A stretch of DNA of 64,000 nt from the NCBI RefSeq assembly GCF_013167455.1, contig NZ_CP038328.1, one strand, 5' to 3'. The position numbers were made by a program. Source of the DNA: Escherichia coli O157:H7 (GTDB lineage: Bacteria > Pseudomonadota > Gammaproteobacteria > Enterobacterales > Enterobacteriaceae). Shown in pieces: positions 30,001-36,000 of the stretch. Position 1 is the stretch's first letter. Every line of letters starts with the position of its first letter.

Positions 30001-33000
30001 TAACTAGCTATTCTCTTTGCCCCGCCATTCTGGTGGGGCTTTTTTTGTCTTTCTTCTTCAACAATGCGTTAAATTTCGACTGTTTAAGATATTTCGGCAC
30101 GTTCTTTCCCGTGATAATGTGCGCTATAAGGCAAATCTGCTTCACCGATTCAGCCATAATCCGTAGCAATTAAAATGTTATCTCAAGAGAAATGGACGAT
30201 GAGTGATATAGCATTAACGGTCAGTATTTTGGCTTTGGTGGCAGTCGTCGGTTTGTTTATCGGCAACGTCAAATTTCGCGGCATAGGATTAGGTATTGGC
30301 GGCGTGCTGTTTGGTGGGATCATCGTCGGCCATTTTGTTTCTCAGGCGGGGATGACATTAAGTAGCGATATGCTGCATGTTATTCAGGAATTTGGCCTGA
30401 TCCTGTTCGTTTATACCATCGGGATTCAGGTAGGGCCGGGCTTCTTTGCCTCATTGCGCGTCTCCGGATTACGCCTCAACCTGTTTGCTGTTCTGATCGT
30501 CATCATCGGTGGTCTGGTTACCGCCATCCTGCATAAACTGTTTGATATTCCACTGCCGGTAGTGCTGGGGATTTTCTCCGGTGCGGTAACCAATACGCCA
30601 GCGCTGGGGGCAGGGCAGCAGATTTTGCGCGACCTGGGTACACCAATGGAAATGGTCGATCAGATGGGGATGAGTTACGCGATGGCGTATCCATTCGGCA
30701 TTTGCGGGATATTGTTCACCATGTGGATGTTGCGGGTTATTTTCCGCGTCAATGTCGAGACAGAAGCCCAGCAGCACGAGTCTTCACGCACCAATGGCGG
30801 CGCGCTGATCAAGACTATCAATATTCGCGTTGAGAACCCTAACCTGCATGATTTAGCCATTAAAGATGTACCGATTCTCAACGGCGACAAAATTATCTGC
30901 TCGCGTCTGAAACGCGAAGAAACCCTAAAAGTTCCTTCGCCAGATACCATTATCCAACTGGGCGATTTGCTGCATCTGGTGGGTCAGCCAGCGGATTTAC
31001 ATAATGCGCAACTGGTGATTGGTCAGGAGGTCGATACTTCGCTGTCCACGAAAGGCACTGATTTGCGCGTCGAGCGTGTGGTGGTCACCAATGAAAACGT
31101 GCTTGGTAAGCGTATTCGCGACCTGCATTTTAAAGAACGCTATGACGTTGTTATCTCGCGCCTGAACCGTGCCGGGGTCGAACTGGTCGCCAGTGGCGAT
31201 ATCAGCCTGCAGTTCGGCGATATCCTCAACCTGGTGGGGCGTCCGTCCGCAATTGATGCCGTTGCCAATGTGCTGGGGAATGCGCAGCAAAAACTGCAAC
31301 AGGTTCAGATGCTGCCAGTGTTTATTGGCATCGGGCTTGGCGTATTGTTAGGTTCTATTCCCGTCTTTGTGCCAGGATTCCCGGCCGCGTTGAAACTGGG
31401 GCTGGCGGGCGGTCCGCTGATTATGGCGTTGATCCTCGGGCGTATCGGCAGTATCGGCAAGCTGTACTGGTTTATGCCGCCAAGTGCCAACCTCGCGCTG
31501 CGGGAACTGGGGATCGTGCTGTTCCTCTCGGTCGTTGGTCTGAAATCTGGTGGGGATTTTGTGAATACCCTGGTCAATGGCGAAGGGCTAAGCTGGATTG
31601 GTTATGGTGCCCTGATCACCGCCGTTCCGCTGATTACTGTTGGCATTCTGGCGCGGATGTTAGCCAAAATGAATTACCTGACCATGTGCGGGATGCTGGC
31701 AGGTTCCATGACCGATCCTCCGGCGCTGGCGTTTGCTAATAATCTTCATCCAACCAGCGGTGCGGCGGCGCTCTCTTACGCCACTGTCTATCCGTTAGTG
31801 ATGTTCCTGCGCATTATCACCCCCCAATTACTGGCGGTGCTCTTCTGGAGTATCGGTTAACTCTTGTCCGGGTGGAGTCGCCGTAAATGGTACTCCACCT
31901 GGTATTCGCTGGCATTTCTGAACATCACTGAATAATTCAAAAACTCCCCGCTCTCGCTATATGACAACGAGGTGATCCGCAGCAGTGGCGTGTGTTCCGC
32001 TACCTTCATTTGCCGCGCCAGCAGTCTATCGGCGAGCACCGGCGTCAGGCTTTCATAATTACCGCCAATCAAAATCCCGCACTCTTGTTCAATATATTCA
32101 AACTTCGACCCTTCCAGATGTTGCAGCGAAAGGTTACGGAACAGTTTTACCGGCATATAGCTGTCTTCCAGCATCAGCGGTTTCCCTTCCACAAAACGAA
32201 CGCGACGGGAGAAGTAGATCTGCTCGTTGATTTGAATCCGCAACTGGCTGGCAATTGCCGGAGGCGCAGGCATGATTTCAAAAATCAGCACCTGGCTGGT
32301 GACTGTTTTTCCCTGCCGTTTTAACACCTCCACCAGCCCGGTCAGGCTGGCGGTTTGATGCAGCACATCTTTGCGCACCAGGTAAGTGCCGCTGCCGTGG
32401 CGGCGGACCACCAGCCCCCACGCTACCAGCAGGTCAATCGCTTTACGGATGGTCATCCGCGATACCGCAAACTCTTCCGCCAGCTTTTTTTCACCGGGAA
32501 GAAGGCTGTTTAGCGTGAAATCCGCGGAATTAAGTCGAATTCTTAACCGCTCCGCAATGCTTTTGTAGATCATCTCTAGATCTCTTTTTTGCCTGCAAGC
32601 CCGGGTAATGCGCCCACAAGTTCTGCTTAATCAATTGAAAAAACATCTTTTTTTTAAAGATGTGTTCGATGCTGTGTACCAGTGCTCACAGAGATCTACT
32701 TTTTCGCGAAAAAGTAGATCTCTACCGCCCAACGAAAAGCATGAAAGCGATCACGAATCCCATTGGGTCGTCATGTTCTGCCGATCGCATCTTCCTATCC
32801 TCGCTCCAGGCCTGCCGCATAACCAATCAGGCTTCCTACTTACAGAATTGAGAAAAGAGGATGTGGAAATGCTCAGTCAAATTCAACGCTTTGGCGGCGC
32901 GATGTTCACGCCAGTGCTGCTGTTTCCCTTCGCCGGGATTGTGGTGGGTCTTGCCATCTTGCTGCAAAACCCGATGTTTGTCGGGGAATCACTGACCGAT

Positions 33001-36000
33001 CCGAACAGTTTATTCGCGCAAATCGTACACATTATTGAAGAGGGCGGTTGGACGGTATTCCGTAATATGCCGCTGATTTTTGCTGTCGGTTTACCCATTG
33101 GCCTTGCTAAGCAAGCGCAGGGGCGTGCTTGTCTGGCGGTGATGGTGAGTTTCCTGACCTGGAACTATTTCATCAATGCGATGGGAATGACCTGGGGAAG
33201 CTACTTCGGCGTCGATTTCACTCAGGACGCGGTGGCAGGTAGCGGTCTGACAATGATGGCCGGGATTAAAACCCTCGATACCAGCATTATCGGCGCAATT
33301 ATCATTTCCGGCATTGTGACGGCGCTGCATAACCGTCTGTTCGATAAAAAACTGCCGGTTTTTCTCGGCATTTTCCAGGGGACGTCTTATGTGGTGATTA
33401 TCGCCTTCCTGGTGATGATCCCCTGTGCCTGGCTGACATTGCTCGGCTGGCCAAAAGTACAAATGGGGATTGAATCTCTGCAAGCGTTCCTGCGTTCGGC
33501 GGGTGCGCTTGGGGTGTGGGTTTACACCTTCCTCGAACGTATTCTGATCCCAACCGGTTTACACCACTTCATCTACGGACCGTTTATCTTTGGTCCGGCA
33601 GCTGTTGAAGGCGGAATTCAGATGTACTGGGCGCAGCATCTGCAAGAGTTCAGTTTGAGCGCCGAGCCGCTGAAATCGTTGTTCCCGGAAGGAGGTTTTG
33701 CCCTGCACGGTAACTCAAAAATCTTTGGTGCCGTGGGCATTTCTTTAGCGATGTACTTCACTGCCGCACCGGAAAATCGGGTAAAAGTGGCGGGTTTGCT
33801 GATTCCCGCAACCTTAACCGCCATGCTGGTGGGAATTACCGAACCGCTGGAATTTACCTTCCTGTTCATTTCACCGTTGCTGTTTGCGGTACACGCTGTG
33901 CTTGCGGCCTCAATGTCGACCGTGATGTATCTCTTTGGTGTGGTGGGCAACATGGGCGGAGGTCTGATTGACCAGGTTTTACCGCAAAACTGGATCCCGA
34001 TGTTCAGCAACCACGCGGATATGATGCTGACCCAAATCGCCATTGGGTTGTGCTTTACCCTGCTGTACTTCGTGGTTTTCCGCACCCTGATTCTGCAATT
34101 CAACATGTGCACGCCGGGACGTGAAGATGCGGAAGTGAAACTCTACTCAAAAGCCGAATACAAAGCCTCGCGAGGCCAAACCACCGCGGCAGAGCCAAAA
34201 AAAGAGCTGGATCAGGCTGCCGGTATCCTGCAAGCCCTGGGCGGGGTCGGCAATATCTCCAGCATTAACAATTGTGCGACGCGTCTACGCATTGCACTGC
34301 ATGACATGTCACAAACGCTGGATGACGAAGTCTTTAAAAAGCTGGGAGCGCACGGCGTCTTCCGTAGTGGCGATGCCATTCAGGTGATCATTGGTCTGCA
34401 TGTATCCCAGCTGCGTGAACAGCTCGATAGCTTAATTAATTCTCATCAATCAGCAGAAAATGTTGCCATTACGGAGGCAGTATAATGACCAAATTCTCAG
34501 TGGTTGTCGCAGGCGGTGGAAGCACCTTTACGCCAGGCATCGTGTTGATGCTCCTGGCGAATCAGGACCGTTTCCCGCTTCGTGCACTGAAATTTTATGA
34601 TAACGATGGTTCGCGGCAGGAAGTGATTGCCGAAGCCTGTAAAGTCATCCTTAAAGAAAAAGCGCCGGATATTGCGTTTAGTTACACCACCGATCCTGAA
34701 GTGGCGTTCAGCGACGTTGATTTTGTCATGGCGCACATCCGCGTCGGCAAATACCCGATGCGCGAACTGGATGAAAAAATCCCGCTGCGCCACGGCGTTG
34801 TTGGTCAGGAAACTTGCGGACCCGGCGGAATAGCGTACGGCATGCGTTCCATTGGCGGCGTCCTGGAACTGGTGGATTATATGGAAAAATATTCACCAAA
34901 CGCCTGGATGCTCAACTACTCCAACCCGGCAGCAATTGTTGCAGAAGCCACGCGTCGTCTGCGCCCGAATGCGAAAATCCTCAACATCTGTGACATGCCA
35001 ATCGGTATTGAAAGCCGGATGGCGCAAATTGTTGGGCTGCAAGATCGCAAACAGATGCGCGTGCGCTACTACGGCCTGAACCACTTTGGCTGGTGGACAT
35101 CAATTGAAGATTTGCAGGGCAACGACCTGATGCACCAGCTGCGGCAATATGTCTCTAAGCACGGTTATGTTCCACCGCAGCAAGATACACATACTGAAGC
35201 GAGCTGGAACGACACCTATGCAAAAGCGCGGGATGTCCAGGCACTGGACCCGGATACATTGCCGAACACCTATCTGAAATATTATCTCTTCCCGGATTAT
35301 GTCGTTCAGCATTCCAACCCTGAACATACTCGCGCGAATGAGGTAATGGAACATCGCGAGAAACAGGTTTTCGATGCTTGCCGCGCCATTACGGCGGCAG
35401 GAAATTCAGCGGCGGGCAAGCTGGAAATTGACGAACATGCGTCATACATCGTCGATCTGGCGGCGGCAATTGCCTTCAACACTCAGGAGCGGATGTTGCT
35501 GATTGTGCCTAACAACGGGGCAATCCATAACTTTGATGATGAAGCTATGGTCGAGATCCCGTGTCTGGTCGGGCACAACGGACCAGAACCACTGGTGGTC
35601 GGCGATATCCCGCAGTTTCAGAAAGGGTTAATGAGTCAGCAAGTGGCGGTGGAAAAACTGGTCGTGGACGCCTGGGAACAGCGTTCATATCAGCACCTGT
35701 GGCAGGCGATTACGTTGTCGAAAACGGTACCGAGCGCCTCGGTCGCCAAAGCTATTCTGGATGAGTTGCTGGAGGCCAACAAAGCGTACTGGCCAGAGTT
35801 ACGTTAATTGTGTGGACTGGCATCCGTTGGGTGCTGGTCCGTATTCTTTAGCACGGCTGAAGGCGCATAACCAAATTTATGTTTAAAGGCTTTGCTGAAA
35901 TGAAAGGAGTCGAAGAAGTTGAGCGTATCAGCGACTTCGCCAACCGAGTTTCCTTGTTGCTTTAATAGCGATAGCGCCAGATCCAGACGCGCATCGAGGT

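Follow-up and report, generated by a model that had tools for sequence, protein, structure and literature searches.

Among described systems, the closest counterpart of the locus considered here is the aglA-aglB operon of Klebsiella pneumoniae (PDB 6DUX/6DVV), the two genes of which confer isomaltose use on Escherichia coli K-12, whose own homologs are considered cryptic or truncated (PMC5309279). In K-12 the same locus, with the same flanking genes yidP and yidL, holds the pseudogenes glvC, glvB and glvG. We analyzed this locus in a stretch of 64,000 nucleotides from E. coli O157:H7 (NCBI RefSeq assembly GCF_013167455.1, contig NZ_CP038328.1), referred to below in its entirety as the window. 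With a probability that we put at roughly 0.8, the window carries an undamaged yidP-glvCB-glvA module that is the E. coli ortholog of the K. pneumoniae aglA-aglB alpha-glucoside phosphotransferase system (PTS) pathway, with which it shares the gene order, the stop/start overlap between the two genes and an internal GGAGG. Activity has been demonstrated for the Klebsiella AglA and AglB proteins and is predicted for their O157 counterparts. The finding is an ordinary one and already known: RefSeq annotates an intact ortholog of a characterized pathway, and K-12 is the degenerate exception. The module comprises the following features, where PGAP denotes the Prokaryotic Genome Annotation Pipeline, EIICB the transporter and GH4 the glycoside hydrolase family of the second gene product:

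32869..34485, plus strand: glvCB, aglA ortholog, predicted alpha-glucoside PTS EIICB, 538 amino acids (aa); WP_000952127.1, called intact by PGAP.
34485..35807, plus strand: glvA, aglB ortholog, predicted GH4 NAD+/Mn2+-dependent 6-phospho-alpha-glucosidase, 440 aa; WP_000160122.1, called intact by PGAP.
34473..34487, plus strand: internal Shine-Dalgarno GGAGG and TAATG stop/start overlap linking EIICB to the hydrolase, read from the sequence.
31857..32573, minus strand: yidP, GntR/HutC-family regulator, 238 aa, divergent from the operon; Pfam and PGAP.

Both the open reading frame (ORF) table and the raw sequence give uninterrupted frames, with zero internal stops in either gene. The EIICB frame runs from an ATG at 32869, preceded by GAGGA at 32857-32861, to a TAA at 34483-34485, and the GH4 frame runs from an ATG at 34485 to a TAA at 35805-35807. 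At the junction, which reads GTA TAA TG, the TAA (34483-34485) and the ATG (34485-34487) have one base in common, and GGAGG at 34473-34477 lies 7 nt upstream of the hydrolase ATG; the combination of GGAGG and an overlapping stop and start is also kept in other genera, most of them with ATGA. The overlap suggests that translation of EIICB and the hydrolase is coupled. An earlier note on this DNA had described both genes as uninterrupted, 538 and 440 aa long and joined at TAATG, and had placed them at 32869-35807, all of which is borne out by the ORF table and the sequence. The upstream extension of EIICB to 32608 (625 aa) proposed by the ORF lister was rejected as a mechanical artefact, since PGAP and all homologs start at 32869 and the Shine-Dalgarno sequence is located there. 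The exact EIICB and GH4 proteins are already present in public databases, in at least 1000 contigs each, under the names 'PTS sugar transporter subunit IIB' and '6-phospho-alpha-glucosidase', respectively. Many E. coli O157:H7 chromosomes match the 3.3-kb region with 100% identity, and in the O157:H7 strain ATCC 43888 PGAP calls both genes intact, with yidP on one flank and yidL on the other.

The hydrolase, GlvA, contains the domains Glyco_hydro_4 (PF02056; residues 6-184, 224 bits) and Glyco_hydro_4C (PF11975; residues 195-415, 188 bits). It aligns without gaps to K. pneumoniae AglB (PDB 6DUX) over residues 1-439 (phmmer E = 6.6e-274, 912 bits, 89% identity), and to Bacillus subtilis GlvA (1U8X) over residues 3-439 with an offset of +2 (phmmer E = 8.9e-224, 747 bits). 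The residue set Cys171, Asp172, His202 and Tyr265 of B. subtilis GlvA corresponds to Cys169, Asp170, His200 and Tyr263 in the O157 protein, where all four are present, and the nucleotide-binding GGGS motif is found at residues 10-13. By this likeness, O157 GlvA is predicted to carry out the NAD+/Mn2+-dependent hydrolysis of 6-phospho-alpha-glucosides. The transporter, EIICB, matches TIGR02005, the model for alpha-glucoside-specific PTS IIBC proteins, with 959.2 bits against a cut-off of 607.3, residues 2-523 of the protein aligning with positions 1-524 of the 524-position profile, and it is 81% identical to its K. pneumoniae ortholog over 100% of its length. The Pfam domains PTS_EIIC and PTS_EIIB (PF02378, PF00367) fall on residues 10-346 and 453-482, respectively; the EIIC portion extends over approximately residues 1-415 and includes a GITE motif at 322-325, and the EIIB phosphorylation residue is Cys469 within NCATRLR. 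These features point to a protein that would both transport and phosphorylate alpha-glucosides. No fused EIIA domain was identified in EIICB in NCBIfam and Pfam profile searches, and crr is located outside the window.

Alignment to functional homologs had been set beforehand as the refuting test of an intact pathway; no truncation was seen, GlvA being gapless against 6DUX and 1U8X, and EIICB spanning the whole of TIGR02005. In a check for subtler damage, each protein was compared with 52-83 homologs at the sites conserved in at least 95% of them, and EIICB and GlvA presented 3 deviations each. The RefSeq name given to the full 538-aa EIICB, 'PTS sugar transporter subunit IIB', is misleading. 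It apparently derives from NF007255, a 161-position equivalog model that matches residues 378-538, that is, the K-12 GlvB pseudogene fragment, and that outranks the better-fitting alpha-glucoside IIBC model TIGR02005.

The state of the locus in K-12 was assessed through a base-by-base alignment with K-12 NCM3722, in which PGAP flags both genes as pseudogenes ('internal stop' and 'frameshifted'). Two sites are of importance:

33973, plus strand: K-12 nonsense site, CAG (Gln369) here and TAG in K-12; alignment with K-12.
35078..35585, plus strand: 508-bp segment deleted in K-12 and in about half of E. coli genomes; alignment with K-12 and sequence.

The K-12 locus has approximately 99% nucleotide identity to that of O157 and only two of the differences are damaging, the remainder in both genes amounting to 21 synonymous and 2 missense changes. 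The substitution C33973T converts Gln369 into an amber codon and thereby creates K-12 glvC (368 aa) and glvB (161 aa). This split is not a natural domain boundary and cuts the membrane domain, since the hydrophobic segments of EIICB run on to approximately residue 413. The second lesion, the 508-bp deletion, shifts the frame after His200 and leaves the 212-aa GlvG stub; the deleted segment is bounded by an 8-bp direct repeat, GAACCACT, at 35078-35085 and 35586-35593. The first copy of GAACCACT is followed, 3 nt on, by a Chi site, GCTGGTGG, at 35089-35096, and the second copy, in the stretch 35586-35598, leads directly into CTGGTGG. The amber codon of K-12 replaces a Gln codon, and supE, a Gln-inserting suppressor often present in cloning strains, would give back precisely the wild-type EIICB residue; even with amber suppression, the hydrolase deletion would still block the K-12 pathway. 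The statement in the earlier note that the K-12 locus is pseudogenised is hence confirmed by the amber at Gln369, the frameshifting deletion and the PGAP pseudogene flags.

Beyond intact frames, the genes of the module show constraint at several evolutionary depths. The ratio of non-synonymous to synonymous substitution rates (dN/dS) is 0.03-0.10 for yidP, glvCB and glvA against their Citrobacter and Klebsiella orthologs. Segregating sites across six intact alleles of E. coli are distributed as 45 synonymous and 5 non-synonymous in glvCB, and as 25 and 9 in glvA, and the EIICB protein is the same in O157:H7, CE10 and ATCC 8739 despite 20-26 synonymous differences. Changes private to O157 number 17 synonymous and 2 non-synonymous, with both of the latter in glvA. 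These counts indicate that purifying selection is acting on the genes up to the present in the O157 lineage, and, of the indirect evidence at hand, this speaks most strongly for their use. Taken with the intact ORFs, the orthology and the presence of key residues, it supports the suggestion, made before this analysis, that the strain may retain a functional alpha-glucoside PTS pathway.

A survey of 5426 complete E. coli genomes places this allele within the species. The commonest state of the locus is the K-12-type deletion, with an identical junction in 2641 of the 5426 genomes (~49%); the exact K-12 amber allele, on the other hand, is matched in 348 genomes only. In a further 1137 genomes (~21%; e.g. 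E. coli 2017.09.02CC) yidP, glvCB and glvA are absent en bloc and yidE is joined directly to yidL, which fits the listing of glvC among the functions specifically absent from group B2 (Touchon et al. 2009, PMC2617782). The 508-bp hydrolase segment is retained in 1652 genomes (~30%), and both genes are annotated as intact in all six of the inspected genomes that retain it. By gene content, O157:H7 is a member of a sizeable minority with complete pathway genes.

The earlier note had also named yidP as the likely adjacent regulator. Both domains of YidP are full length, a GntR winged helix-turn-helix domain (PF00392) at residues 3-64 and a UTRA effector domain (PF07702) at 87-224, its best NCBIfam match is PRK09764, and yidP differs from its K-12 counterpart by 1 amino-acid change and 12 synonymous changes. 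A synteny scan taking one genome per species returned 79 loci. A divergent yidP homolog adjoins the EIICB-GH4 pair in approximately 50 gammaproteobacterial loci with differing other flanks, in the genera Citrobacter, Klebsiella, Raoultella, Enterobacter, Kosakonia, Cedecea, Buttiauxella, Serratia, Rahnella, Proteus, Pectobacterium, Brenneria, Pantoea, Aeromonas and Vibrio, and no YidP homolog was found beside the pair in the Firmicute loci of the scan. The outer flanks, ibpB-yidE and yidL-yidK-yidJ, are common only to close relatives. The AraC-family gene yidL was considered as the regulator and rejected: beyond close relatives it is not conserved together with the pair, it remains in genomes that lack the module, it has been destroyed in ATCC 8739, and it pairs with yidK-yidJ rather than with the glv genes. 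In ATCC 8739 and AR_0369, yidL is truncated, yidL-yidK-yidJ is replaced by an IS200/IS605 tnpA pseudogene and an intact TnpB (InsQ), and glv is intact. The persistence of intact glv genes without yidL-yidK-yidJ in ATCC 8739 argues that yidP, and not yidL, belongs to the module. Synteny and co-deletion thus support yidP as the probable regulator of glvCB-glvA, and the proposal of the note is sustained by the ~50-locus triad, by the joint absence in 1137 genomes and by the lack of co-conservation of yidL-yidK-yidJ. Four loci in Kluyvera and Superficieibacter carry two tandem copies of the module, the first set being followed directly downstream by a further GH4 gene and a further yidP-like regulator (56-61% identical); only in the two Superficieibacter loci did an additional full-length EIICB pass the coverage filter.

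The region between yidP and glvCB contains the following candidate control elements:

32577..32585, no strand assigned: TAGATCTCT (TAGACCTCT in other genera), just upstream of the yidP start, yidP ribosome-binding region; most conserved alignment block, repeat family D4/I7.
32690..32723, no strand assigned: 34-bp perfect palindrome AGAGATCTACTTTTTCG|CGAAAAAGTAGATCTCT, candidate YidP operator; inverted repeat I1, 100% complementary.
32740..32755, plus strand: CRP-like site CATGAAAGCGATCACG, centered approximately 60 nt upstream of the putative transcription start; conserved core.
32796..32801, plus strand: -10-like hexamer TATCCT (TATTCT in relatives), putative operon promoter; conserved alignment block.

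Across 27 orthologous intergenic regions, little can be aligned apart from five blocks: the yidP ribosome-binding site, the inverted repeat, TGA-N6-TCAC, a TATTCT-like hexamer and the Shine-Dalgarno sequence. Motif counts were obtained on 57 orthologous intergenic regions and compared with shuffles. The strict form of the inverted repeat, GTCTA-N16-TAGAC, with cores invariably 16 nt apart, is present in 20 of the 57 regions versus 0.2 in shuffles, and the TGA-N6-TCAC core, located approximately 120 nt before the EIICB start, in 53 versus 0.9. The palindrome at 32690-32723 is perfect only in the O157 lineage, by virtue of private substitutions at 32694 and 32713, which are 2 of the 3 private intergenic changes of O157; K-12 and five other E. 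coli alleles present 1-2 mismatches. We read the palindrome as a candidate YidP operator; TAGATCTCT at 32577-32585 is possibly a third operator half-site, and the CRP-like site may be read as class-I-type. A BLAST match in O157 genomes to a 'second place', considered as a possible second copy of the locus, was traced to the intergenic region, where it is the self-match of the 34-bp palindrome on the opposite strand and not a paralog.

By homology, the pathway would operate through a phosphoryl relay from phosphoenolpyruvate to EI, HPr and EIIA-Glc (Crr, encoded elsewhere and the presumed EIIA partner), and thence to Cys469 of EIIB. EIIC would import an alpha-glucoside, which would be phosphorylated at O-6 of its glucosyl unit to yield an intracellular 6-phospho-alpha-glucoside; the likely substrates are sucrose isomers (palatinose, turanose and others), isomaltose, maltitol and methyl-alpha-glucoside. 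The GH4 enzyme, with NAD+ and Mn2+ (ligands Cys169 and His200; catalysis by Asp170 and Tyr263), would then release glucose-6-phosphate and the aglycone. Having overlapping stop and start codons, glvCB and glvA may be read as one operon, which the HutC-type YidP would most likely repress at the split inverted repeat until its UTRA domain binds the phospho-sugar, and the CRP-like site at approximately -60 would make expression dependent on cyclic AMP.

Several observations weigh against a pathway that is both intact and operative. Searches of the literature found no O157 expression or phenotype on palatinose or other alpha-glucosides, and zero direct reports on YidP function or on the glv genes in O157. 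To our knowledge, classical identification tables score E. coli as negative for the fermentation of alpha-methyl-glucoside, a result that would be hard to square with approximately 30% of genomes having an expressed pathway. A consensus scan of 32450-36000 returned no sigma-70-like promoter and only chance-level terminators, which implies that the promoter is weak or activator-dependent. Taken alone, the CRP-like site has 3 mismatches to the consensus and scores no better than chance in a consensus search of the window; since this score is not significant, what speaks for the site is its conservation across genera. In O157 the cores of all three operator half-sites are TAGAT/ATCTA, as opposed to TAGAC/GTCTA in other genera, and the loss of the hydrolase or of the whole module in approximately 70% of E. 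coli genomes indicates that the pathway is dispensable in the species. To these should be added the caveat that P217H in GlvA, which like A43S is private to the O157 lineage, replaces a near-invariant proline:

35133..35135, plus strand: hydrolase codon 217, His in O157; Pro in 82 of 83 homologs and in all five of the other intact alleles of E. coli.

Much of this could be accommodated by an intact but cryptic operon, in which the proteins work but the operon is ordinarily silent, like bgl, asc and chb (cel), so that no alpha-glucoside-positive phenotype would arise without an activating regulatory mutation. The apparent negativity of E. coli for alpha-methyl-glucoside in identification tables is in line with such silence, as are the poor -35 region, the failure of the scan to find a sigma-70-like promoter, the divergence of the E. 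coli operator half-site cores from the inter-genus consensus, and the loss or breakage of the module in some 70% of the species. The E. coli homologs have, moreover, been termed 'cryptic' (PMC5309279). Strong purifying selection within E. coli and on the O157 branch nevertheless suggests at least occasional use of the proteins; E. coli has retained the CRP-like, -10 and Shine-Dalgarno blocks, and a weak -35 is normal at CRP-dependent promoters. Crypticity agrees with an undamaged pathway on everything but phenotype; we consider it a possibility deserving attention, albeit a doubtful one. It is quite unlikely, in our estimation, that the frames are intact but the O157 allele is already crippled, by the private P217H (with A43S) or by the operator changes, in an early stage of K-12-like decay. 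Such impairment would be consistent with the conservation of P217 in all but one homolog and in each of the 5 other undamaged E. coli alleles inspected, with the location in glvA of both O157-private non-synonymous changes, and with that of 2 of the 3 private intergenic changes in the palindrome; yet on the O157 branch synonymous changes still outnumber non-synonymous ones by 17 to 2, residue 217 is not among the known catalytic or metal-binding residues, and the operator changes raise the symmetry of the palindrome. It is highly improbable, finally, that the locus encodes a PTS for beta-glucosides (arbutin) and a 6-phospho-beta-glucosidase, as implied by the older K-12 annotation of glvC as 'arbutin specific PTS permease' (Touchon 2009, Table 5, PMC2617782), given that the hydrolase scores 912 bits against the K. 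pneumoniae 6-phospho-alpha-glucosidase and at most 213 bits against GH4 6-phospho-beta-glucosidases, and that the transporter passes the alpha-specific TIGR02005, whereas beta-glucoside models match it via the EIIB domain only, with 40-48 bits.

An undamaged alpha-glucoside module remains the preferred reading, and its practical meaning is modest. K-12 is a poor reference for this locus, and metabolic models or annotations transferred from K-12 would wrongly deny O157:H7, and with it approximately 30% of the E. coli genomes sequenced, a probable means of using sucrose isomers, isomaltose, maltitol and methyl-alpha-glucoside, sugars that are found in honey, starch hydrolysates and processed foods. 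Should the pathway be expressed, it could act as a small metabolic lineage marker, absent in B2-type strains, broken in most A/B1 strains, and intact in O157:H7 and others. The only mildly unexpected result is the presence of an intact and apparently constrained transporter where the hydrolase has been lost. The 538-aa transporter ORF is intact in all five of the deletion-bearing genomes sampled outside K-12 (KO11FL, O111:H11, 32-4, PEC422 and 2015C-3905), the EIICB protein of two of them is identical to the O157 version, and across the six deletion-bearing genomes (these five and K-12) the segregating sites of the transporter gene comprise 30 synonymous and 2 non-synonymous changes. Selection may conceivably maintain EIICB in E. 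coli irrespective of the hydrolase, although we regard this as unlikely; EIICB and YidP could then serve a role besides feeding GlvA, such as providing substrate for another enzyme, or sensing or regulation, and the O157 state would be one of several maintained alleles and not simply the 'ancestral functional' one. A duller alternative for an intact EIICB beside a dead hydrolase is that recent recombination spread the deletion onto diverse backgrounds.

Downstream of the module, the glvA stop overlaps that of the convergent yidL by 4 bp at 35804-35807 (TTAA), with zero intergenic space. A consensus scan found no recognizable terminator between the two genes, for which the overlap of the stop codons leaves no room. 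An Rfam scan of 29000-40500 gave zero matches in the glv locus and identified only a ROSE element near ibpA, a ROSE_2 RNA thermometer match at 29000-29056 (74.9 bits, cut by the edge of the scan) that lies upstream of the heat-shock genes ibpA-ibpB, where it is expected.

Among known systems, the glvA-glvR-glvC (malA-glvR-malP) operon of B. subtilis has a GH4 enzyme with 73-74% identity and an EIICB with 61% identity to those of O157, and shares the same catalytic Cys, Asp, His and Tyr, but its gene order is glvA-regulator-EIICB and, unlike O157, it has no adjoining YidP homolog. GlvR, the regulator in Bacillus, is a member of the RpiR family and not of the GntR family. The architecture of YidP, a GntR winged helix-turn-helix domain followed by a UTRA domain, is instead that of the HutC-subfamily GntR repressors of sugar PTS operons (MngR/FarR, TreR and NagR/DasR), and its divergent orientation with respect to a PTS-plus-hydrolase operon adds to the likeness. 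We take its candidate half-sites, GTCTA/TAGAC, to resemble the GTCTAGAC core of DasR/NagR sites, although the candidate YidP half-sites are 16 nt apart and those of DasR/NagR-type sites are adjacent. With respect to K. pneumoniae aglA-aglB, O157 differs in having TAGAT instead of TAGAC cores, His217 instead of Pro in GlvA, and a TAATG instead of an ATGA overlap. As in O157, Klebsiella species possess a divergent GntR/HutC regulator, and in Klebsiella michiganensis and K. spallanzanii ibpB-yidE lies upstream, in the same chromosomal neighborhood as in O157.

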